Origin: Zootoca vivipara
Lineage: Eukaryota
Assembly: GCF_963506605.1 (NCBI RefSeq)
Contig: NC_083283.1
Location: forward strand, 39,742,001-39,806,000
Direction: 5' to 3'
Length of the DNA: 64,000 bases
The notes under the pieces were generated by a model that was given only the letters and a program-made list of their open reading frames with translations, searched no databases and was not told the DNA's origin. A program made the translations under genes and the position numbers. How positions within the stretch are numbered: the stretch's first letter is position 1; the number at the start of each line of letters is the position of its first letter. Below, one piece after another: positions 6,222-64,000 of this stretch.

Positions 6222-6300
6222 ATGCCACGATCCTTCTTGGTCAAGAAACATTTCAACTCTTCCAAAAAGCCGAACTATGGTGAACTGGATACTCACACAG
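6222..6300 (+). CDS. SNAI2: Snail family transcriptional repressor 2 (Slug), coding exon 1 (SNAG domain)
   Basis: ATG at 6222 gives MPRSFLVKKHFNSSKKPNYGELDTHT, the SNAG motif; 79 nt followed by donor GTAATC at 6301 (phase 1). Confidence 0.97.
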
Positions 6301-6416
6301 GTAATCCAAGGCTGAAAGCTGTATTCTAACTGCAAGTGCTGCTCTGATTGTTGTTGCTGAAGTGGGACTTTTCATAGTCTGGTGCAAACTTTTAACAAAC
6401 TTTTTTTTACAGCGTT

Positions 6417-6426
6417 TCTCTCTCCC

Positions 6427-6492
<66 letters not shown>
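6417..6492. repeat. (TC)n microsatellite in SNAI2 intron 1
   Basis: Visible TC dinucleotide run. Confidence 0.95.
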
Positions 6493-6495
<3 letters not shown>

Positions 6496-6881
6496 TAAAA
6501 AATGTCAGTGCCAACAGAATTAAAACTTCAACTTAGGAGTTTGCTTCATCGCTGATTTTTTTTTTTTTGCTCTCTGTTGCAAAATGAGTGACTTTTGGAA
6601 ATGTAAGAGAATGGTGTGGATTTTACTGCTGGATTTCCTCTGCCTGCAGCAGAGGCTTGGGGAGGAAAGCTGTGACTTTGAGCAGACCACCCAACTTATG
6701 TAAAGTTTTAACTAAAGTTACAGAATGTTATATTCATTCTGTATGTTTCATTGGAGCAGACTAATGTCAGTAGGATTTCATCACTTCCACTCCCCATGAG
6801 CATTGGATATATTGTACTGCTGTTATACAGAGAAAAATCTCTGTTGTCTTAAAACAATTCTCTTTTTTTCTTTTCTTCCAG

Positions 6882-7427
6882 TGATCATTTCCCCATACCT
6901 TTATGAGAGCTACCCCATGCCTATCATTCCACAGCCTGAGATCCTGAGCTCAGTTGCTTACAACCCCATCACAGTGTGGACTACAACTGGGCTGCTGCCT
7001 TCCCCTTTACCCAGTGACCTCTCACCTCTCTCCGGATACCCTTCATCTTTGGGAAGAGTCAGCCCACCTCCACATTCTGACACTTCATCTAAGGATCACA
7101 GTGGCTCGGAGAGTCCCATTAGTGATGAAGAAGAGAGGATCCAGTCCAAACTTTCCGACCCTCATGCAACTGAAGCAGAGAAATTTCAGTGCAGCTTATG
7201 CAATAAGACCTATTCAACTTTCTCTGGACTGGCGAAACATAAGCAGTTGCACTGTGATGCCCAGTCTAGGAAATCTTTCAGCTGTAAATACTGTGACAAG
7301 GAATATGTGAGCCTAGGGGCTCTTAAGATGCACATCAGGACCCACACACTACCTTGTGTCTGCAAGATCTGTGGAAAGGCTTTCTCTAGACCATGGTTAC
7401 TTCAAGGACACATCAGAACACATACTG
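6882..7427 (+). CDS. SNAI2: SNAI2 coding exon 2 (SLUG domain and C2H2 zinc fingers 1-3)
   Basis: Polypyrimidine tract and CAG acceptor ending at 6881; encodes [11 protein letters not shown]...[28 protein letters not shown] (SLUG domain, which separates SNAI2 from SNAI1) and zinc fingers to HIRTHT; donor GTAAGA at 7428; 546 nt. Confidence 0.97.
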
Positions 7428-9003
7428 GTAAGAGGGGAAATGTGATTGTGCATAACATGTATTGCTGCAATAATTCCATTTTTAAAAATCCATAGGGCTT
7501 TATGGTCAATTTCATGTTTTCCAGTTATACTGCTTGCTCTGCTAAATGTTCACCAGACTTCTTTTCTTTTTAAATCATTTATGAGTGGGTCAGCTTATAT
7601 ACTGGTGTAACACTTTTTCACTTTAGCGAACTTTAAAGTTTGCTTCAGCAAGCTGTCACAAGACAGGGATCCATTTGACCCTAAGAATTCCATGCTTCAA
7701 CAGGAGTGTTGGAACACGCTTTTGGAAGGAATGCAGGTGCAAGGTAGAAAAATCAGACAGCAAACAAGAGAGAAGGAAGTAAGCAGAAATACCAGGTTCC
7801 CTATGCAATAATCTGCAGTCAAGCATTGTATACAAGCAATGCACACCGTAAACCCCCTTAGTCAGCATATAGGCACAGAATTTTACACTCTGATCAAATG
7901 TGCAGTTCTTGGAAATGAGTTCCACAGAAAGCAATAGGTCTTACATGTAAGAAATATGTGTACTGTACAAAAGTCATTTAGAAGATCTGGCACCTCACTT
8001 TGCTAAACACAAAGGACCTGATCCCATGAAGTAAATCCCAGAGAAATAAATGAGAATTAAGGATTGTATTTTAAATAGAAGTTTCATTCCACTGACAGGG
8101 CAACAGGACAGATTAATGGGTTTGAAGGCATAGACGAATCTGCAAATTGCAATCCAAAGCTGGAATTTTATGTACAGTTACCTAGGAGTAAGTCCCACTG
8201 AACTTCATACAATATGAACGTCACTGTGAGCAACAAAAGTTAACCTTAAGACAAAAAACACTGTGATTCAAACACTTATCATAGAAAGAATTTCTGATTT
8301 TCTTCAATGGTACTAAACACCTTCAAGCTGCAGTCCTGTGCTTCATTCAGTAGGGGGAAGCTCCACAGCCAGCCTAATTTCCAAAGAGAATTTGGCTGCG
8401 TAGCCTTTAAGTCCCACTAAATTCGGCTGCACTTACTTCTGTGAACAATGCCTAGGGCCAGAGTGTAAGTCAAAAATGTTCACAGATTTGAGTAGCTTGT
8501 GCATTAATTGCAACCTTTTATTGATCATGTGCAAGTGAGTCCTCTTGCTACTCCTTGTCCTGCCTCTGTTCCAAGGAAGCAGAGTGCAATGCTGAAGCAT
8601 TCAATCTGATGGGAATTCTGCCATTCACACCAATGGCATGTAAAATACAGCCTTAGGCAGCAGTAGGCGTTGCACAGGATACAGTAAACGAATGGAAGGA
8701 ACATATGGAAATGCTGGGTGGAGCCCAGCCTGCAGGCACTGGCTGCACCTGCTGAAGCAGAAAGTGTCAGTGGCTTGTCATTTAATGCACCATGAATCCT
8801 GCAAACTCTGAAAAGTATGAAATAATGAATGGACAGCCTGCAGTGTAATGAATGGACCCTTTAATAATATATAGAACCCAAACACCATTTTCACCGGCAT
8901 GATGCTTTTTTATTCCTCTGCAAAACGACTTGTCCCATTTATACAGAAAGGTCCTTACTTGAGCTTTAAAACGATTAAACCTCTTTTGTGTATTTCTTTC
9001 CAG

Positions 9004-9185
9004 GAGAGAAGCCTTTTTCGTGCCCTCATTGCAACAGAGCATTTGCAGACAGGTCAAATTTGAGGGCCCACTTGCAGACCCATTCGGATGTGAAGAAATA
9101 CCAATGCAAAAACTGTTCAAAAACTTTCTCACGAATGTCTCTTCTGCACAAACATGAGGAATCTGGCTGCTGTGTAGCTCACTGA
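9004..9185 (+). CDS. SNAI2: SNAI2 coding exon 3 (zinc fingers 4-5, stop)
   Basis: Acceptor TTTCTTTCCAG ending at 9003; encodes [60 protein letters not shown]; exon sum 79+546+182=807 nt = 268 aa plus stop. Confidence 0.97.
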
Positions 9186-42009: not shown

Positions 42010-42811
42010 TGAAATATCAACAACCTCAGATATGCAGATGACACAACCTTGATGGCAGAAAGCGAGGAGGAATTAAAGAACCTTTTAATGAGGGTGAAAG
42101 AGGAGAGCGCAAAATATGGTCTGAAGCTCAACATCAAAAAAACCAAGATCATGGCCACTGGTCCCATCACCTCCTAGCAAATAGAAGGGGAAGAAATGGA
42201 GGCAGTGAGAGATTTTACTTTCTTGGGCTCCTTGATCACTGCAGATGGTGACAGCAGTCACGAAATTAAAAGACGCCTGCTTCTTGGGAGAAAAGCAATG
42301 ACAAACCTAGACAGCATCTTAAAAAGCAGAGACATCACCTTGCCGACAAAGGTCCGTATAGTTAAAGCTATGGTTTTCCCAGTAGCGATGTATGGAAGTG
42401 AGAGCTGGACCATAAAGAAGGCTGATCGCCGAAGAATTGATGCTTTTGAATTATGGTGCTGGAGGAGACTCTTGAGAGTCCCATGGACTGCAAGAAGATC
42501 AAACCTATCCATTCTTAAGGAAATCAGCCCTGAGTGCTCCCTGGAAGGACAGATCGTGAAGCTGAGGCTCCAATACTTTGGCCACCTCATGAGAAGAGAA
42601 GAATCCTTGGAAAAGACCCTGATGTTGGGAAAGATTGAGGGCACTAGGAGAAGGGGACGACAGAGGACAAGATGGTTGGACAGTGTTCTCGAAGCTACGA
42701 ACATGAGTTTGACCAAACTGTGGGAGGCAGTGCAAGACAGGAGTGCCTGGCGTGCTATGGTCCATGGGGTCATGAAGAGTCGGACACGACTAAACGACTA
42801 AACAACAACAA
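42010..42811 (+). mobile_element. RTE/BovB LINE 3' fragment with reverse transcriptase C-terminus
   Basis: NINNLRYADDTTLMAESEEELKNLL (YADD RT motif), one in-frame TAG near 42175, ORF 42196-42801, (CAA)n tail. Confidence 0.93.
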
Positions 42812-52500: not shown

Positions 52501-55500
52501 CTGAGAAATGCCTGTGTGAACCTATGCAGCTCTCACAGCAAAATACATCTGAATTGGGCCACTGAACAAGCCAAATTACAATGAATCTGAGTTCTGCGAA
52601 TTGTCAGTCTAGCTCTACAATAATTGAGAAATGCCATTGTGTAGGCATGTGTGTGTGGTGCCCACAAGCTTAAAAAGGTTGGTGACCCCTGGTGCAGTGG
52701 CTAGAGTAATTCCTGGCTTAACATTTCCAATCGGCTACAAGGCTCACCACACCTTTGCAGTTAAAGGGGGCTACATTCACATACAATGTTATGCATGTAA
52801 GCTCTTTCCCACCATCCCATTTGGGGTCCCTGATTGCGTGTACCAGGCCTTGTTGGAAAACGCCCTGGGGGTGCCTGCAAGCCCCCGGAACTCTGAGCGT
52901 CCTCTGGTATGTGCAGCTCTGGAAAAGGCATCTCCCTTCTCTTCCAATGCGCTTCTAGCGACATACATCATATTGATATATGCACACTAAGCTTCTGGCA
53001 GAACACAGCAAGAAGCGTGAGACATCGTAGAACCAATCTACTATTTATTTACACACTATGTACAGACAAAAGCATAATGGTGTCCATTCTCTCCAGCTCC
53101 AAGAGAACAAACAGGCACAAGTAAAAGTGAAAGTGTGTTACAAAGTACATACAGCGGAAGAGATAAGACTGTCTTCCGTTTCCCACACTCTTCTCAGATA
53201 GGCATGTGATTTACACCAATCAAAAATGCAGCATCGGAGGAGTGAAATTGCTAACAGGCCTATGTACATGACATACATTTAACGCACAGAGCCCCTTTTG
53301 CACCTTCCTCTGCAACCATTGAGGTCCGGGTCTGGGGATGTGGTCACACTTCCCAAGTGTACATGGAGAGAAGCTGAAAACAAGACTTGGGTGACCATGG
53401 GCCAATCATTACTTCCCCCCGCTTCTCCATCTCTTTGCGAAGATAATGTTGTGGGTCGAGGGAGAATCCTCCTGAGCACCTTAGAGGGAGGCTGCAATAT
53501 ATATTTTTTTAAAAAAAGTCCACAAAATCCATATCTTCAATGTAAGAAGCTCAGGGGCACCCAAGGGCTTTGGACATTTGGCATGCGCTGGGGGGGAGGC
53601 GAGCATTCAAGAAAAAAATAACCTCAAAGAGCTCCATGGGTGCAGAGTGCTACCCGCAGAGTTCTTTCAATCAGTCCCATCCAAGAATAATCAATGCCAG
53701 TTTTGCCACTGCCAATCAAATGCAAACAGCAGGGTTGTGACACCTTCCACAGGTACTTAGGCAGACAGAGCACTTCTTTTCCTAAAAGGCAAGGGCTTCC
53801 GCTTTTCCTGCATCTGTATCCACATTGAATCAGCATCTGCTGCTATCATACGATACAGGCACAGACCCCCTCAGAAAAAGACTGATTTCCATCACATCAT
53901 CTGGCCTCACATTTGTCTGCCATGCTGTGGCAGGGAATGTGATACTGAGCTGACAAAAAGCAGCACACATTATGCCTGCAGAGACCTTTTGTTCTTCTGC
54001 ATCTCCCCTGCTGGTTTTCAAATTCCAAATGGATTCCCCCTTTTCTCTGAGTCTCCATCTCTCATGCATACAGACTCTCTCTCTCTCTCTCCCTCCCTCC
54101 CTCCCTTTGAGCCTTTCAAGCCAAATGGCCTGGTCAGATCACAAGCCAGCAGGTGCTCTTCTGCTCCACATTTGCATCTCCCAATCCAAACACACACCTC
54201 TCTCTTTCAGCCTTAAAAATAAACCAAGGGAGACTTATCAGTTTGTTTAAGGCTTTGAAGTTTGGTTGGGCTCTGTTCATATATTAGCCTGTTTCTGGGA
54301 GGATATACTTGACATGTTAAGGTTGGTAGCAATTAGAGGCAAGAAGAAATTGCTTGAATAAGGTGCAAAAAGGAGAAGTGGAAAGTGCCTGTGCCTGGGA
54401 GAGTCAAGTTTTTTGCTCGTTGCAGTATTGTTGCTTGGGTGGAAAAGATAACCGCAAAGAGAAATTGCAATAGCTATAAAGCCAAAAGTACATCTTGTGG
54501 GGGGTGCAATTTACTCCTAGACTTTTGGATGCACCTTTTTGCAATTATGTGAACTTATTTTTCCACAGAGAATTCAGCTCTGCAATGTTTCAGCAATCCC
54601 TGCAAGGTGGCCAGTTTCCTCATCAGTCAAATGCTTGATAGCATATAAAAACACATCTATAACCTGGAGACACATTAGGCCTGGCCCAGCAGTAAGGGCA
54701 AATATCCAATATGGTGATTTCAATAGGACTGGGGATGCGTTAGAGAATCACACATAGGACTGAGTCCAAAGAGCATAATAACAAGATGAAGTAATGCTTT
54801 GCTGAATTGACTGCGAAAGCTTCATTGTCCATTCATTCTACTCTTGACTATCATCAATCTTGCATCTCCAAAATACCTACTAAAGATCTTCCACCTACCT
54901 GAGAGTTTGACACATTTAAAAGCATCATATTTGAGGAAACTCTTTCTGACAAATGTTGTATCCCTGCCTTCCATCCAATGTATTCAGTCTGCACTTCCTT
55001 TTTCTGTGGGGCAGGAGAGCAGAACCCCCATTAGCACCAGCCAGCACACCCAGATGGTCAGGGGTGATGGGAGCTGGAGTCCAACAACATCTGGAGGGCT
55101 GCACAGATTCCCCATCCCTGATGTAGGATGCCAAGTTGTTAAGCTAGGCCTGCCTACTTTTTTCAGGCCTTGCTTCTGTGCCTATAACAGCAGCATGAAA
55201 TGCGGAAATGAAGCTTTCCTGACTTAATTTCCCTGCTGGCAAAAACTTCTGCAAAATGTCAGTGCATTGCTGTTGTTAAAAACACAGGAGCAAGGTCAGA
55301 GAAAAATGATAGTTAATTCTAAACATAATATATCTCTATTTCCCATATGTAAACCTATATACTTCTATTTAGAAGATAGCTGAAGGAGACATTGGCCAGT
55401 GAACTACCATAAGGCAGTTCTTTAGCTATCAAGTCCAGCACCATTTAGAGCTTTAAAGAGTTTACAAAAACAGCACACTGGTTAGTCAGTGTAGCTCCTT

Positions 55501-56239
55501 GAGTACTGGTGCGATGCGCTCTTTGTTCAACCCCCGTTAATAATTTGGCCACCACGTTCTGAACCAGCTGAAGTTCTGAATATAATGCAGTGAAGTAATC
55601 TAGCCTTTGCCCTAAGGCAAAATAGAATCACCAGCACAACTCTAACATTTTCATGGACTTCCATACCTTACAGCTGCATGAGAAAGAGGTACAAATGATA
55701 GAAGAACCCTCCACCTTCCAGAAGCAACTTCTGAGTTGAGCATTCACATTCCTTAAAGCACACAGAGAAAGTTTGCCAAAAAGGATTTGTATTCTGTTGT
55801 TCTAAACTTCCTTACTCCAAGTCACTTAAGGAGTAACTCAGCTCCAAGGCTATATAATGAGCGCTGTGTCTACATAATACCCCTCCCACAACCTACACAT
55901 ACAGTTGGAATCCTCCCCTTCCTTCCACTTTAGTAACAACCCAGTTTGACCACAAATCTGGATTACAAACCCACTTCAACACTGGGTTGCAATCTTGGTC
56001 TGTGGACAAGGTAACCCCAAAAATTATTCAAATAGCAGCTAGCATTGACATCACATTGGAACCAACCAATCACATATTGCACACTTCACACTTTGGTTAT
56101 AAAGATCTCTGGATTCTAGCTCAGGAGTAGCCAAGGTACCCTCCAGACTTCTGTCAGACTCCACCCAGCAACTCCAACTTCTGTCAGACCCACCCAGCAA
56201 GGCCAATGATGAGGAATGATGGAACATCTGGAGGGCATC

Positions 56240-57004
56240 TGTGACAAATTGAAGCACTTTTAAAATGTTTATTCCTGCCCGGCTGGCAAAGAGTTAACCC
56301 ACCTCCAGCCTGACTGGCATAGAACTCTGATGGGGGCGGGACTGTGCCCGGTTTTAAAAAAGGAGGGAGTGTCGGTTTGGTCAGTTAGGAGGGAGAGGGA
56401 GGAAGGTGTGGTGTGGTGTTATGTGGTGGCTTATATGAAGACAGTTAAGAGGCTAGGAAAACTTAAAGTTAAATGTTTGACTGAGTTTATTTTGTACAAC
56501 TGGAACAAAGCTAATTAATAAATGACACGTTAAAGAATCACTTATGTTTTTAACACAATAAAACTTCATCTCTGTTTTTGCCAACAAGAGGTCCGTTTGT
56601 ATTTTTCCAGCGAGGTACCAGGACTCACAGCCGTGGTGACTCAAGAGAGGGCCAAACTCACCTCAGGCAGGGAGGTGGTGGTTTGTGTCCTGAAGTTACA
56701 CGGAGGAGGCTTAGAAGGGTAACCTGAGGTGCCAAGAAGTTGCCAGAGTGCCTAGGGCAAACTTCTACAGTGGGGGAATCCAACTGAGGGAGACCCTTTA
56801 CAGGAGGCAAGAGGTTATTCCTGGGGGACAGCCTAGAGTTTCTTAAGGTACCAGGCCACGTAGGCTGGAAGGCTCTCCTTACTTAGAAACCCATTAGGAA
56901 AAGGGGTTTATTTTTGAGGCGGCAGGAGAAGAGGGTGGGTGCTTTCCCCTCTGGATTCCTGTGTCGCAGTGATAGTAAGGCAGAGTGGGACACGGGTCGT
57001 CACA
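56240..57004 (+). repeat. 5' LTR
   Basis: TGTGACA...CGTCACA, direct repeat of 61643-62407. Confidence 0.96.
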
Positions 57005-57008
57005 TTTT

Positions 57009-57026
57009 TGGTGGCAGCGTCGTGAT
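57009..57026 (+). other. Primer binding site, probably tRNA-Leu
   Basis: TGGTGGCAGCG(TCGTGAT) starts after a 4-nt spacer following the 5' LTR; the first 11 nt complement the 3' end of vertebrate tRNA-Leu (...CGCUGCCACCA). Confidence 0.75.
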
Positions 57027-57088
57027 CGAAATTCAAAGCTCACGCGCCTAGTTTGGTTTGAGTCTGTCAGGATTTTCCTGTGAGGAAA

Positions 57089-60000
57089 ATGACTCACGTA
57101 AGAAAACCCAGAGAGGCAAAAGGAGATGAAAGAACGGAAGGGGCTGAGGGAAGCCCAGGTTCTGAGGTAGAACTGATGAAACTACGAATTGAGATGGCCC
57201 GAATTGAAGCTGAGAGGGAAAAGATAGCATCTGAAAGTGAGAGGGAAAAAGCTAGAATTGAAGCTGAGGAGAGAATGCAGTCCGAGAGGTTAAGGGTTCA
57301 ATTAGAACAGGACAGAATGAAGCTTGAAGAGATACGTTTGAGATCAGAATTAACTCGGAGTCCAGTTAACAATGATAGTATCGCAATTAATTTAAAAAGG
57401 TTCCCCAAATTTGGAAAAGACGATAATGTCGAATCGTTTCTATTTACCTTTGAACGCGTTTGTGTGGAATTTCAAATACCTGAGGAGAACTGGATGCTTT
57501 ATTTAAGACCTCAAATTTGTGGGATACTAAGTGAAATTTATGCTGACCTGAGGGAAGAAGAGCTGTCAAGTTACCAAGTATTTAAGCAAAGAGTCAGGGT
57601 TCGATGTGGACTCACAGCTGAACAAAGCAGAAAGGCTTTTCGTGAGGCAAAAAAGGAACATAAAGAGACTTATGCCCAACTAGCTAGCCGCTTAGATAAA
57701 TTACTTGACAGATGGATTCAAGGGAGTGGAGTGAAGGACTTTGATGAGTTAAAACAATTAATTTGTTTAGAACAATTTTTTAAGCAAATCCCTAGCAATT
57801 TACGTTGGTTCTTGAGGGATAAAAAACTGAAAACTGTGGCAGGGGTTGCCGAGGTCTTAGACGAACTACAAGGAGATTTCAATGAAATAGCATTCCCAAA
57901 ACACTCACAGAAGGGTAATCCATGGAGAAACAGAGAAAATAAAGACAGGCAAGAAAATTTTCCTGTCAGGGAATCAGTTTCTGACAAGACAGGTTCTAAG
58001 AAAATCACTTGTTTTTTCTGTAATCGTGAGGGCCATGTACGTGCCAGGTGCCCCCTGCTGGTTAAGTCGCAAACTACACCTACTGCAGCTAAACAAGTAA
58101 AACTGGTAATGCAGTCACAGGAAAATAGCTCGCCTCAGACAGAAGGCTCAGAGAAAGCAGACAGTTCAGCTGAGACTACTTCTAAGGTCTTACAGGTCTG
58201 GAGGGCTGAGCAGGAGTGCAACCAAGATTACATGGAGCCAATTGAATTAAATGGTCAGTCTTTTTTAGGTTTGAGGGACACAGGAGCAGAAGTCTCACTT
58301 GTTAAATCCCAATTTGTTCCAAAGGAGCAGTACCTCAAGGGTCAGTCCTATAGTTTAAAAGGCATATGGGGCCCACATTTTGAAGTACCATTAGCTGAAG
58401 TTGATATTACCTACAAAGGATTTTGTGGCAAGTGGAGAGTAGGAATCCTAAATGAATTGGAGGTACCCTTTTTAATAGGGAATGACCTAGCTAGTCAGAA
58501 GCACCGTATTCAAGTGATAACTAGGTCACAGTCTCAAGTCACTGAGAGTAATCCTCCTGCAGTTATAGAGTCACCCATAGAGCCTGGTGAGGATGAAGGG
58601 CTGATTAGCGTGCCAGTGGTCCAGGAGCACGGTGCCCAATTCTTGAGTGATCAAAAAGAGGATGAAACTATAAAAGAGCTGTGGGGTAAAGCACAAAGTC
58701 CTACTGCAGAAGTAACTGTGGAGAACCCCTGCTTATTTACCACCATTGAGGGAAGACTGTATAGAATTTCTAGGAGGAGGAAAACTGCTGCTGTTTGGGA
58801 AAGGAAGAAACAGTTAGTGTTGCCAAGAGCTTACCGGTGGCAAGTGCTACAAATGGCACACGACGCACCCTCAGCAGCGCATCTAGGCATTAGAAAAACT
58901 AGTGATAGAATCCAAGCAAGATTTTACTGGCCTGGGATGGGCAAGGACATCAAAGAGTATTGCAAGTCCTGTGTGATCTGCCAAAAAGCAGGCAAAAGAG
59001 CGGACAAAACGCGAGGCTTGTTACAGTCTATTCCCGTAATTACTGAGCCCTTTTCCAGAGTAGGAGTGGACATCCTCGGGCCTATCTCCAGAGTTACAAA
59101 AAGGGGGAATAAGTTTATTTTATGCCTCGTAGATTATGCTACGCGCTATCCAGAAGCAATACCTCTAAAGGACATTGATTCCAAGACTGTAGCAAAAGCC
59201 CTCATGTCGGTATTCTTAAGGCTGGGATTCCCCAAAGAAATTATAACAGATTTAGGGACATCCTTCACGTCCAAGACCATGGAAGAGCTTTTAACTCTTT
59301 GTGGGATTAAGCATGTTAAAACGACGGCTTATCATCCACAGTCGAATGGCTTGACGGAGAAATTTAATTCGACCCTGAGCCGGATGCTAAAAACCTATTC
59401 CATCAATCATCCTAACGACTGGGATGAGAGGCTGCAACACTTCCTATTTGGTTATCGCGAAGTGCCGCAGGAGAGCACAGGGTTCAGTCCTTTTGAACTC
59501 CTATTTGGACGACAGCCACGAGGACCCCTAGACTTGATGAAAGCAGCGTGGTCGGGGGAGGAGCAGATCGACAGCCCTGATGTTGTGACGTATCTACAGG
59601 AGCTGCAGAGCGACCTTCAAGAGCTACGGGAGCAAGCTGCTCACAACTTGCAGCAGGCACAGCGTCGACAGAAGCAGTGGTATGATGCACACGCAAGAGA
59701 CAGAACTTTCCAGCCTGGTGACAGTGTGCTCGTGTTAAGAACAAGACGTCGAAAGAAGTTGGAGATGTCGTGGGACGGTCCCTTCAAAGTGGTCGAGAGG
59801 ATATCGGCGGTGAACTATTTGGTAGAGTTAGATGGGGAAGGGAACCGATGTAAGAATTTTCATGTAAATTTACTTAAGCCTTATTTTGACAGAAATAAGT
59901 TGGTGTTGCAAGTAAAGGGGAAGGTGACACAAGGAATTCATTTAACTGGGTGGGGAGAACTAAGTAAGGGCACAACTCTAGCAGAGGTGTCATTCGATGA

Positions 60001-61385
60001 AAGTCTGACCCCAGAGCAAAAGGAGCAGTTAAAATTAGTCCTTGCTCAGTTTGCTCAGATCTTCTCAAACATCCCAGGGAGGACCAGCCTAGCAACTCAT
60101 AAAATAGATACGGGGGAAGCAAGACCCATAGCTACCCCTCCTTACAGAGTGACGGGGGAGCACGCCGACTTGGTCTCTTCAGAGATCAGGGAGATGCTTG
60201 CACTGGGATTGATTGAGCCCTCTTACAGCCCCTGGTCATCGCCCCTGCTCTTGGTCAGGAAGCCAGACAATACCTTTCGTCCCTGTGTAGACTTCAGAAA
60301 GTTGAACCAGGTGACCGTGCCGGACGTTTACCCCATGCCACGGGTGGACGACTTGGTTGAGACCATAGGAAAAGCGAATTATATATCTACACTTGACTTA
60401 ACAAAAGGGTACTGGCAAGTGGAAATGGATCCCTTAGACAAGCCCAAAACCGCTTTCATCACTAGAGATGGGTTGTTTGAATTTAAAGTGTTGCCTTTTG
60501 GATTAAAGAACGCGGCAGCCACGTTCCAGCGACTCATCGATAGGATGCTAAGGGGTCTGCAAACGTTCGCCCTTGCTTACATTGACGACATAGCGGTATT
60601 TAGCCCATCGTGGAGAGATCACTTACAACACCTAAGTGTGGTTTTCCAGAGGATAAAAGCGGCAGGTTTAACAGTAAAAGCGGCTAAGTGTCAGATGGGG
60701 AAAAGACAGGTTAAATACTTAGGCCATGTTCTCGGAGGGGGAGTGATCAGGCCAGATACTAACAAAGTGGAAGCCATCAGAAGCTGGCCGGCTCCCAAAA
60801 CTAAGAAGCAGGTGCGTGCCTTTATAGGAGCTATAGGTTATTATAGGCGTTTTATCCCCCAGTTCAGCACTCACGCGGCTGTGTTGAGTGACTGCACGAA
60901 GAAAAGCCGCCCGGATAAGATTATCTGGACCACACAGTGTCAACAAGCTTTTGAACTTTTAAAGGCTGCTCTGATGACAGAGCCCATTTTAAAAGCACCT
61001 GATTTCTTTTGCCCTTTTAATTTAATGACGGACGCATCAGGTGTTGGTTTAGGTGCAGTACTGGCACAGGAGGGAGAAGGAGGTTTTTTTACACCCAGTG
61101 TTATATATCAGCCGGAAGCTGTTAGAGAGGGAAAAGCACCTCTCTACCATAGAACTCGAATGCCTAGCGATTTTGTGGTCCGTAGGTAAACTGAAGCCTT
61201 ACCTGTGGGGCCGAAAGTTTACCCTATATACCGATCACTCACCACTGAAATGGTTAAACCAAATGAAGGGTAACAACAGTAAGTTAGTCAGGTGGAGCAT
61301 GCAGTTACAGGATTACACTTTTGATGTCAAACACATAAGTGGGAAGGAAAACATCATAGCGGACGCCTTATCCAGGTATTTTTGA
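57089..61385 (+). CDS. Gag-Pol polyprotein: coiled coil, SCAN-like capsid, CCHC, protease, integrase, RT, RNase H; one +1 frameshift at 61084-61090
   Basis: ATG 57089; CFFCNREGHVRARC (~58010); LRDTGA (~58277); HHCC and D-D-E integrase (~58850-59400) with GPF/SH3-like tail; RT LDLTKGYWQ...YIDD (~60578); RNase H TDASG, continuing in another frame (HPVLYISRKL...ELECLA...TDH...ADALSR) to TGA at 61385. Confidence 0.92.
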
Positions 61386-61626
61386 GAGGTATAGGATGGT
61401 GCAAATTATTATATGAAACGGTAATAACCCTAGCAGAACATTTGTGCTTAGGCATTATAGTCTGACACATGCCAAACATGGTTTATCTGTGTACAAGTTT
61501 ATGAGATGTTAATTTAGTTGACTTTGTAATATGAATGTTATAGAATGCATTGAAGTATTTTTAACCCCAAGCCCATTGCTTTGGCATTGCTCTAGTTAGT
61601 TAAGAGCAAGCCGACGCAATGTCTTT

Positions 61627-61642
61627 GTGGTGGGGGGAGATA
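61627..61642 (+). other. Polypurine tract
   Basis: GTGGTGGGGGGAGATA immediately before the 3' LTR. Confidence 0.8.
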
Positions 61643-62407
61643 TGTGACAAATTGAAGCACTTTTAAAATGTTTATTCCTGCCCGGCTGGCAAAGAGTTAA
61701 CCCACCTCCAGCCTGACTGGCATAGAACTCTGATGGGGGCGGGACTGTGCCCGGTTTTAAAAAAGGAGGGAGTGTCGGTTTGGTCAGTTAGGAGGGAGAG
61801 GGAGGAAGGTGTGGTGTGGTGTTATGTGGTGGCTTATATGAAGACAGTTAAGAGGCTAGGAAAACTTAAAGTTAAATGTTTGACTGAGTTTATTTTGTAC
61901 AACTGGAACAAAGCTAATTAATAAATGACACGTTAAAGAATCACTTATGTTTTTAACACAATAAAACTTCATCTCTGTTTTTGCCAACAAGAGGTCCGTT
62001 TGTATTTTTCCAGCGAGGTACCAGGACTCACAGCCGTGGTGACTCAAGAGAGGGCCAAACTCACCTCAGGCAGGGAGGTGGTGGTTTGTGTCCTGAAGTT
62101 ACACGGAGGAGGCTTAGAAGGGTAACCTGAGGTGCCAAGAAGTTGCCAGAGTGCCTAGGGCAAACTTCTACAGTGGGGGAATCCAACTGAGGGAGACCCT
62201 TTACAGGAGGCAAGAGGTTATTCCTGGGGGACAGCCTAGAGTTTCTTAAGGTACCAGGCCACGTAGGCTGGAAGGCTCTCCTTACTTAGAAACCCATTAG
62301 GAAAAGGGGTTTATTTTTGAGGCGGCAGGAGAAGAGGGTGGGTGCTTTCCCCTCTGGATTCCTGTGTCGCAGTGATAGTAAGGTAGAGTGGGACCCGGGT
62401 CATCACA
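61643..62407 (+). repeat. 3' LTR
   Basis: TGTGACA...CATCACA; matches the 5' LTR except at 62384, 62395 and 62402. Confidence 0.96.
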
Positions 62408-64000
62408 GCATCCCATTGACTACCATTGTTCTACCTGATAGCAATAGGTCTCAGGATTATTGTAAATCTTCAAAACATGCCATCATTTTTCAAGTCCCTT
62501 TTTTTAAGAATGGCAAGTTGCTATGCTGGTTCAACTTAAAAAGAAACACAGGATATGTTTTTAAACATATCACTTCATTAGAATACAGTAAGGCCACAAC
62601 CTATGCACATTTAACTTCTGCACATTCAGCTTTACACACTTCACAAAATTGTTTAATTTGTTTTTTTAAGGGGGTGGGAAGGGGCTGGGCATCAGGGGGG
62701 AAAGACTTTTGCAATCCCACCTGCTATTGAACCCTGTTCTATTTTGACTATACACAATTTTGGCTTTAGTCACAATCTCTGGAACATAATCCCCACATAA
62801 GTTGCAGCCTATTTTCAGCAACTATCATTGGCCCATTAAGACTGCAATCCTGTGCACAGTTCCTAGGAAGGAAGACGCATTGAACTCAGTAGGACCCACT
62901 TCCATGTAAACATACACAGGGCAGAGCCAAGTAGGATATCTTCCTTACATTTTCTCTTCTTCTAACTTTAATTATTCAATACCTATGTCGCAAAAGGATT
63001 AAAGCTCTGAAGCAGGATGTTGTGAGTCACTGAGCTGGAGAAATGAATCAAGGAGGAAATTGCCTGATTTCTGATGACATTGTTTAGTAGTACCTGTTGT
63101 GACCATGTCTGCTTGTCATACCATACTCTGCCTTTTCTTGGAAATTAGACAAGTAAACATGCCAGGCACACTTCAGCTATAAACCACTACAAAGGGACTT
63201 AGCACTGTTTGTTCTTTTGCTCCGCCTTTCACTGCTGACAGCTCCCAAACTAGACGTGTGGTGCCAGCTATGCCAAGATACTTGAAATAAATTGATTGAG
63301 AAGAATTCTGCAGGGGGGAAAAATATGAAGACAGAAAAAAAATTGCCTGGAATGATTGATCTCTTCTCCAGATATTTATTCCTTTACGTATTCATGAGTC
63401 ATCTACTACAAATGAAGTTTGCTTTCTTTGACAGAAGGATGTGCCTATTGGGGCACCCAGACCTGTTGTAACTCTAACCTCAATCAGGAAAAGGAGTGGG
63501 CCTGTAGGAATTCATTCAACCCTGATTCTCATTCCAGATGTGCCGCTTCCTTCCTGTGTGTCCTTTTGCCAGTTTCCTTAGTTCTCTGCCTCAATATCCT
63601 CTCATGGGGATTCTGCTAATAGCATCACTGAGACTTTGTGGGATAAATGAGCTTCACTAAAGCTACTTAAACCTTTTACACCAACAGCAGTGGTGCCCCC
63701 CCAAAAGCTCCTCCCCTTTTCAACAATTTTCAGCAACCATGGGGGGATGGACTGTCTACTTCTTCATCTACATTGCCTTCATACTACTTTACCAGCAATT
63801 GCATCAGTGACGTCACAAGTGTCGGAATCTGATTGGCTGTGTAGCACTGTGGCATCGTCCCATTCACTCCTTGATTCAGTGGAATTGGGTATTTGATTAT
63901 TCTGGGAAGGAAAAAGCAATATGGGAGAGGGAGGTATAATGGTGCCAAAACGATGGTGTGGTGGGAAAGAGGTGTCTGACCTCCCGGCAAGTAAATCCCA

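Follow-up and report, generated by a model that had tools for sequence, protein, structure and literature searches.

In the lizard Zootoca vivipara, a stretch of 64,000 nucleotides (positions 39,742,001 to 39,806,000 of the forward strand of NC_083283.1, assembly GCF_963506605.1; the window in what follows) carries at window positions 56240-62407 a recent copy of a Gmr1-like retrotransposon with long terminal repeats (LTRs), broken in its RNase H (RH) domain. The family to which it belongs consists of about 64 copies that bear reverse transcriptase (RT) and about 130 that do not, a ratio of RT-less to RT-bearing copies of about 2 to 1. We judge it likely, at a probability of roughly 0.8, that the RT-less copies borrow RT through co-packaging with full-length RNA. 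The RT-borrowing way of life is already known in mice and wheat; an RT-less class that forms the majority of its family and recombines with its helper is new here. Taken by itself, the element adds an unremarkable new member to a clade already described. The same clade, from which amniotes have their SCAN domain, appears here as a burst of some 200 polymorphic, young copies in a lizard.

Two classes of copies

Copies were counted as exact words in the 1.44-Gb genome, and all of the counts are lower bounds. The LTR word (a 22-mer) is found 465 times, an integrase (IN) word 196 times and an RT word 64 times; the full-length junction between integrase and RT has 59 matches and a deletion junction has 114. 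Integrase words outnumber RT words because the RT-less copies share one 1.2-kb deletion (window 60122-61328) that removes RT and most of RNase H. Since integrase precedes RT in this element, one 3' deletion strips away RT and RNase H and yet spares Gag, protease (PR) and integrase. Among the two-LTR copies that were collected first, by similarity of their LTRs, 12 of 16 have the deletion; further copies were fetched in list order, with tandem arrays mostly skipped. In all, 108 copies were examined and five that lacked an anchor were dropped; the other 103 comprise 52 RT-less copies, 50 RT-bearing copies and one that is neither (also dropped).

Among two-LTR copies, 5-bp target-site duplications (TSDs) of their own flank 36 of 38 in the RT-less class and 13 of 16 in the RT-bearing class, and the LTR pair is free of substitutions in 18 of the 38 and 8 of the 16, respectively. 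Because they have their own duplications and, in nearly half of them, LTRs without substitutions, the RT-less copies have transposed as RT-less elements, and recently. An initial annotation, made from the letters of the window alone, had supposed a recently or currently active family and had proposed counting copies and LTR divergence genome-wide; the substitution-free LTR pairs bear out the supposition, and the count gives about 200 very young internal copies.

The RT-less reading frame is Gag-PR-IN, terminating at a TAA stop that lies at the deletion junction in 12/12 copies picked independently of the junction pattern; the junction with any other base at the stop position has no match in the assembly. 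The whole open reading frame (ORF) is open in 41/52 RT-less versus 44/50 RT-bearing copies (Fisher p 0.29). Two marks of a non-autonomous partner in the wheat literature (PMC11302176) are also found here: RT and RNase H are missing from copies that nevertheless have insertions of their own, and the primer binding site (PBS), LTR ends and LTR body are the same, with PBS classes alike in RT-less and RT-bearing copies. It is very probable that these copies depend on a helper. Retrocopying of spliced RNA is ruled out as their origin, the junction being a short microhomology with no GT-AG join, and there is no sign in the lizard genome of a reciprocal, integrase-less class (64 RT words, 59 full-length junctions).

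RT-less copies also get annotated as host genes. The RefSeq 'uncharacterized protein LOC132591526' of Z. vivipara (P0121; 1018 residues) shares 97-99% identity with Gag-PR-IN of the window and terminates at the RT-less junction; by its sequence it is evidently an RT-less copy that an automatic model, with no element annotation, has presented as a host gene. Among the best 120 RT matches there is no RT-bearing protein of the lizard family.

Three side observations concern the copies at large. The charged repeat at the N-terminus of Gag falls into more than 20 length classes spread over ~280 bases among copies, always in frame. Tandem or inverted arrays that share LTRs lie at C4:43.03-43.05 Mb, C8:86.37 Mb, C1:44.35-44.37 Mb (L027), C14:38.37 Mb (L013) and C1:72.0 and 88.44 Mb; one such array joins an RT-bearing unit to an RT-less one. 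Finally, 49 TSDs are 68% G+C (the window has ~42%) and follow a loose C/G-C-N-G-G/C pattern.

Recombination between the classes and signs of selection on the RT-less frame

RT-less and RT-bearing copies are not two lineages: they are recombinationally mixed except beside the deletion. Over the first 2.4 kb compared (Gag to integrase) the fixation index (Fst) between classes is -0.01 to 0.012, and in the LTR it is at most 0.02; in the final 60 bases 5' of the junction it reaches 0.60, and directly 3' of the junction 0.25. On Gag and integrase trees the class label changes 27-28 times, versus 29 with shuffled labels. The squared correlation between sites (r2) drops from 0.11 at distances below 50 bases to 0.013 beyond 400 bases, and at a distance of 1 kb, 83% of the pairs of sites show all four gametes. 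Mixing of this pattern would be expected from co-packaging and template switching.

A scheme of the following kind would accommodate these observations. LTR-driven RNA would yield one polyprotein, cleaved by the protease and assembled in cytoplasmic particles; the particles would package two RNAs, with tRNA-Leu priming reverse transcription, and integrase would insert the cDNA with a 5-bp duplication. The deletion would have arisen once, by a template jump at short microhomology. Mixed particles would supply RT in trans to RT-less RNA, and template switching would keep the RT-less and RT-bearing classes alike. In the least certain step, the RT-less ORF would be kept since its translation or its product aids packaging or integration of its own RNA. 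The window copy, if its RNase H break is real, would need RNase H in trans as well.

The step that is least certain can be approached through codons. In pairwise comparisons of open-frame copies, pN/pS (the non-synonymous to synonymous ratio) for Gag-PR-IN comes to 0.17 in the RT-less class (30 copies) and 0.13 in the RT-bearing class (14 copies); for integrase the values are 0.09 and 0.06, respectively. Variants private to one class were counted in open-frame copies only (42/52 RT-less, 45/50 RT-bearing). Those private to RT-less copies and present in at least two of them comprise 18 synonymous and 15 non-synonymous changes, corresponding to an omega of 0.31 (p 0.0008) on an LTR-derived mutation spectrum and of 0.38 (p 0.004) on a harsher spectrum, which was added because edge misalignment inflated the transversion count and the end bins of the LTR-difference analysis. 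RT-bearing-private variants comprise 12 synonymous and 4 non-synonymous changes (omega 0.12-0.15). The counts show what looks like purifying selection on the RT-less Gag-PR-IN frame, and a benefit of that ORF in cis to the copies encoding it is marginally the better bet.

Several considerations weigh against these conclusions. Constraint on the RT-less frame is weaker than on the RT-bearing one (omega 0.31-0.38 vs 0.12-0.15), and broken-frame copies were excluded from the codon counts. Some of the 'private' variants may come from RT-bearing copies that are absent from this assembly, with the open frame refreshed instead of selected. The peak of Fst near the junction is partly circular, the classes having been defined at the junction, and the mixing could have come about by gene conversion, or through assembly chimeras among near-identical repeats.

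An alternative is that RT-less copies are pure parasites, to which the Gag-PR-IN frame is useless and in which it stays open only through youth and recombination with autonomous copies. The near-zero Fst, linkage that is gone within ~150 bases, the weaker constraint, the frames broken in 11/52 RT-less vs 6/50 RT-bearing copies and the extreme youth of the family are all as parasitism would have them. It does not readily explain why RT-less-private variants that are shared among copies favour synonymous changes (p 0.0008-0.004), why the stop is fixed at the junction, or why changes of the Gag repeat are in frame in 42/42 cases; moreover, among the 52 copies no subclass whose frame is broken or shorter still has expanded, though the ~3 kb of Gag-IN could be shed. 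On balance we consider pure parasitism possible, at rather less than an even chance. Whether a non-autonomous element that retains its structural genes lives as a parasite, as a freeloader acting in cis or as a contributor can be tested naturally in this family, which has datable copies by the hundred and one deletion to serve as a marker.

Other non-autonomous elements and related proteins

Two systems come closest. The mouse IAP (intracisternal A-particle) 1-delta-1 element has an internal deletion and an open ORF with integrase-side sequence, and its fusion protein is reported to act in cis (PMC6466679). The likeness is that of a non-autonomous element whose internal deletion leaves an ORF open, and IAP 1-delta-1 outnumbers its helper among new insertions. 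IAP is a betaretrovirus-like endogenous retrovirus in which the deletion creates a gag-pol fusion; in contrast, Gag, protease and integrase all remain intact in the lizard RT-less copies, whose frame terminates at a stop and for which cis action is only a candidate. In the wheat pair RLG_Quinta/RLG_Cereba, to which RLG_Sabrina may be added, RLG_Quinta keeps an intact Gag ORF and has been proposed as a supplier of Gag (PMC11302176). RLG_Quinta is likewise non-autonomous, with a PBS and LTR ends that are the same as those of its autonomous partner. It differs in lacking both RT and integrase and in having split from Cereba 28-35 million years ago; the lizard partner has kept integrase, and the two lizard classes are indistinguishable except beside the deletion.

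Predicted proteins of relatives offer further, if less direct, parallels. Among those of the bearded dragon Pogona vitticeps (P0151-P0209), 21 of the 26 examined have a common in-frame gap that runs from the C-terminal module of integrase to past the RT catalytic motif, with RNase H kept. Sea turtles of several species have 44 predicted proteins (P0024-P0102) with a common in-frame gap that removes the whole of integrase (residues 640-1022 of P0051); this class is the reciprocal of the lizard deletion, integrase being lost and RT retained. The comparison suggests that the Pogona RT-less class is independent of the lizard one, its gap, like that of the sea turtles, being either a genomic deletion or a predicted intron, and that open-frame deletion classes recur in the Gmr1-like clade.

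Recurrence of this kind can be invoked for a two-part element, in which the RT-less copies give surplus Gag and integrase and the RT-bearing copies need them for efficient spread. A single ORF without a gag/pol shift, the ~2 to 1 excess of RT-less copies, the constraint on their ORF, the 21/26 bearded-dragon and 44 sea-turtle proteins, and the Gag supply proposed for RLG_Quinta (PMC11302176) would all fit such a division of labour. We regard it as improbable: the RT-bearing copies encode everything, what is known of the relatives comes from predicted proteins, in which a gap may be an intron, and the turtle class retains RT and so would not raise Gag over RT. Splicing or degradation can, besides, balance Gag and Pol in single-ORF elements. 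Comparably improbable is the broadest generalization, that Gmr1-like elements, with their single unshifted ORF and their integrase placed before RT, repeatedly split into two co-packaged, freely recombining classes (a full-length donor of RT and a commoner deletion class making capsid, protease and integrase). The lizard family would then be a bipartite retroelement caught in action, and its RT-less SCAN-protease-integrase copies would be living models of the intermediates that led to host SCAN and integrase genes. To return to the preferred reading, in which RT-less copies are co-packaged with and borrow from full-length ones: neither the lizard family nor an RT-less Gmr1 partner is described in the literature covered, which did not extend to Repbase, to subscription journals or to supplementary files; one of these, file S2 of PMC3670739, lists reptile Metaviridae, and a description may exist among such sources.

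Assignment to the Gmr1-like clade

The element is assigned to the Gmr1-like Ty3/gypsy (Metaviridae) LTR retrotransposons, as a new member of that known clade. Pfam finds the domains of its ORF in the order SCAN, CCHC, protease, integrase (H2C2, rve, SH3/p58), RVT_1 and RNase H, and the RT, RNase H and integrase families are of Ty3/gypsy type (PF00078, PF17917/17919, PF17921, PF00665, PF24626). The catalytic motifs DTG, HHCC, D-D-E, GPF, YIDD and TDAS are present. The top matches in the PDB (E 4e-105) are Ty3 Gag-Pol and Ty3 RT, and RT identity to gypsy-type proteins is 44-63%. Gmr1-like elements are defined in print by SCAN followed by PR, IN and RT-RH (10.1101/2025.03.03.638093; PMC8220671; PMC4131045), with the SCAN capsid as marker of the clade (PMC4131045; 10.1101/2025.03.03.638093); SCAN is itself regarded as derived from retrotransposon Gag (PMC11011659). 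The lizard family shares with these elements the SCAN capsid, the PR-IN-RT-RH order, LTRs, a tRNA PBS, a polypurine tract (PPT) and a short TSD, and differs in having ~200 very young internal copies, two-thirds of them without RT.

Among the best 120 RT homologues, 42 have integrase first, 16 have the canonical order and 62 are without a full integrase match; 13 of the 16 canonical-order homologues are tandem gene models. A quick maximum-likelihood tree of RT was built from 67 of 121 rows (the window RT, the 58 order-typed homologues and 8 of the remaining 62). In it a branch with 99% support in the SH-aLRT (an approximate likelihood ratio test of Shimodaira-Hasegawa type) unites the window RT with 42/42 integrase-first and 0/16 canonical proteins. 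It counts against the weight of this tree that it had neither the cod Gmr1, the type element, nor a copia reference. The closest RT neighbours are Anolis carolinensis P0014, P0015 and P0020 (60-62% RT identity, 88% support); over the full ORF the identity to the Anolis proteins is 42-45%, and the lizard family is a distinct one.

The domain order, together with the single ORF, could suggest a Ty1/copia element. That there is RVT_1 in place of RVT_2, gypsy-type integrase and RNase H, a SCAN capsid, Ty3 as the nearest solved structure and gypsy-type proteins as the nearest RTs leaves that assignment with virtually no chance of being right; neither RVT_2 nor a copia-type Gag or integrase is among the 12 Pfam families found at E<=0.01. 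The hallmarks of BEL/Pao are the PR-RT-RH-IN order and the Pao peptidase A17; the order here differs and that peptidase family is not among the Pfam matches. An errantivirus or endogenous retrovirus is discarded for want of env (the 257 bases from the RNase H stop to the 3' LTR have no transmembrane-like stretch, the top 19-residue hydropathy being 1.16), and a chromovirus for want of a Chromo match on integrase, no chromodomain being among the same 12 Pfam families.

Most of what the initial annotation had said of structure holds: the LTR-PBS-ORF-PPT-LTR layout with a perfect 5-bp TSD, exact to the coordinate; the fused Gag-Pol ORF without a gag/pol shift and in the order PR-IN-RT-RH; motifs (LDLTKGYWQ, YIDD, TDASG, GPF) of Ty3/gypsy and not copia type; and the lack of env and chromodomain. 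Its placement in a Gmr1 clade of deuterostomes stands as to Gmr1 (the 99% branch, SCAN) and fails as to deuterostomes. The clade extends beyond them, with members in an annelid (PMC8220671), a flatworm (Gmr1/Osvaldo; PMC12801592) and a sponge, in whose protein P0091 integrase precedes RT. The family that it guessed to be possibly uncharacterised is a new member of the clade and not a new kind, full-length Gmr1 elements being already reported from tuatara, squamates, turtles and crocodiles (PMC3670739). A preprint terms the Gmr1-like clade depleted in non-turtle reptiles (10.1101/2025.03.03.638093).

Age and polymorphism of the insertion

The window insertion is recent: its empty allele is found in a conspecific sample, as had been anticipated, and agrees with the predicted empty sequence at every letter. 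A single contig of 1635 bases in run X17 joins 56012-56239 to the letters after 62412 over a single GCATC, the same record extending over 62408-63300. The X17 flank differs from the window at 7 of ~1120 bases, and the insertion may therefore be lineage-specific. Consistent with filled alleles, contigs of X1, X15 and X18 continue past the left flank and reach 24-26 bases into the LTR, and an X16 contig enters it by 20 bases from the right. Of five conspecific samples, then, one is empty and four are apparently filled, the window itself perhaps deriving from one of the four; a point against the four filled alleles is that they rest on 20-26 LTR bases, below the 31-base threshold. In related species B-E just a quarter or so of the words from the flank are present. 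Polymorphic insertions of this kind are usable as lineage markers. The right flank also contains a short dispersed repeat (window ~62590-62800), with deep contig coverage in all four runs compared.

The LTR pair differs by three substitutions, all inside the final 24 bases; two of them segregate among other copies and one is private. Dating from all three differences was dropped, two being letters that segregate among copies. At a neutral rate of 1-3 x 10^-9 per site and year, one to three differences would put the insertion some 0.2-2 million years ago, the error being wide. The near-identical LTRs of the initial annotation stand, and its almost intact ORF does so only in part, there being one frame break in RNase H, the second half of which lies in a different frame (61053-61385). 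The break is private to the window copy: a 30-mer across it is found in 0/49 other RT-bearing copies. A programmed frameshift is ruled out by the same count and by the 44/50 RT-bearing copies that are uninterrupted. The break lies in a low-complexity stretch and may be a genuine mutation or an assembly error.

Organization of the element and its neighbourhood

Table 1. Features of the retrotransposon copy, in window coordinates
Feature	Position	Strand	Remarks
Left TSD, GCATC	56235..56239	.	single copy in empty allele
5' LTR, 765 bp, TG...CA	56240..57004	+	source of the LTR 22-mer: 465 exact matches genome-wide
PBS, host tRNA-Leu(AAG/TAG)	57009..57026	+	15/18 complementary, first 11 perfect
Gag-PR-IN-RT-RH ORF, single, 1366 aa from ATG	57089..61189	+	loses frame inside RNase H
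Charged repeat, Gag N-terminus	57197..57275	+	length differs among copies; in frame in 89/89 measured
SCAN-like capsid domain, aa 178-263	57620..57877	+	Pfam PF02023, E 7.9e-12
CCHC zinc knuckle	58010..58051	+	Pfam and motif
Aspartic protease core, DTG at 58277	58241..58375	+	Pfam (PR aa 385)
Integrase: HHCC finger, D-D-E core, GPF/SH3 module, aa 579-932	58823..59884	+	5' of RT
RT core, YIDD at 60578, aa 1056-1214, Ty3/gypsy type	60254..60730	+	PF00078, E 7.3e-38
RNase H, aa 1280 onward, split over two frames	60926..61385	+	break at ~61075-61100
Segment missing from RT-less copies (RT and most of RNase H)	60122..61328	+	
PPT	61629..61642	+	immediately 5' of 3' LTR
3' LTR, 765 bp	61643..62407	+	
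Right TSD, GCATC	62408..62412	.	

Fifteen of the 18 PBS bases agree with the 3' end of tRNA-Leu(AAG/TAG) genes in the host genome. In 10 of the 103 copies, on five leader haplotypes, it is the full 18-base complement, with the match ending exactly after base 18; that is the footprint expected from a primer recopied in plus-strand synthesis. It is a curiosity that 87/103 copies retain a PBS with three mismatches to tRNA-Leu despite these ten reverted copies on five haplotypes. Something seems to hold the mismatched form; escape from silencing by tRNA fragments is perhaps the reason. Clusters of the host tRNA-Leu(AAG/TAG) genes lie at C13:44.46-44.47, 49.31 and 50.52 Mb, at C2:17.92 Mb and at C14:44.3-44.4 Mb; within the 64-kb window there is no tRNA gene.

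Weak inverted matches at 54109-54225 were not confirmed by blastn at E 1e-3. A Snail-family gene of three exons encoding five zinc fingers lies at 6222-9185, on the same strand as the element and 47.05 kb upstream of it. The insertion had been placed about 47 kb downstream of SNAI2: the distance is right, and the name is one that we take to be likely from the five fingers, the PDB match being SNAI1. Window positions ~42013-42174 hold a fragment of a non-LTR reverse transcriptase (YADD), presumably of an RTE/Bov-B-type long interspersed nuclear element.

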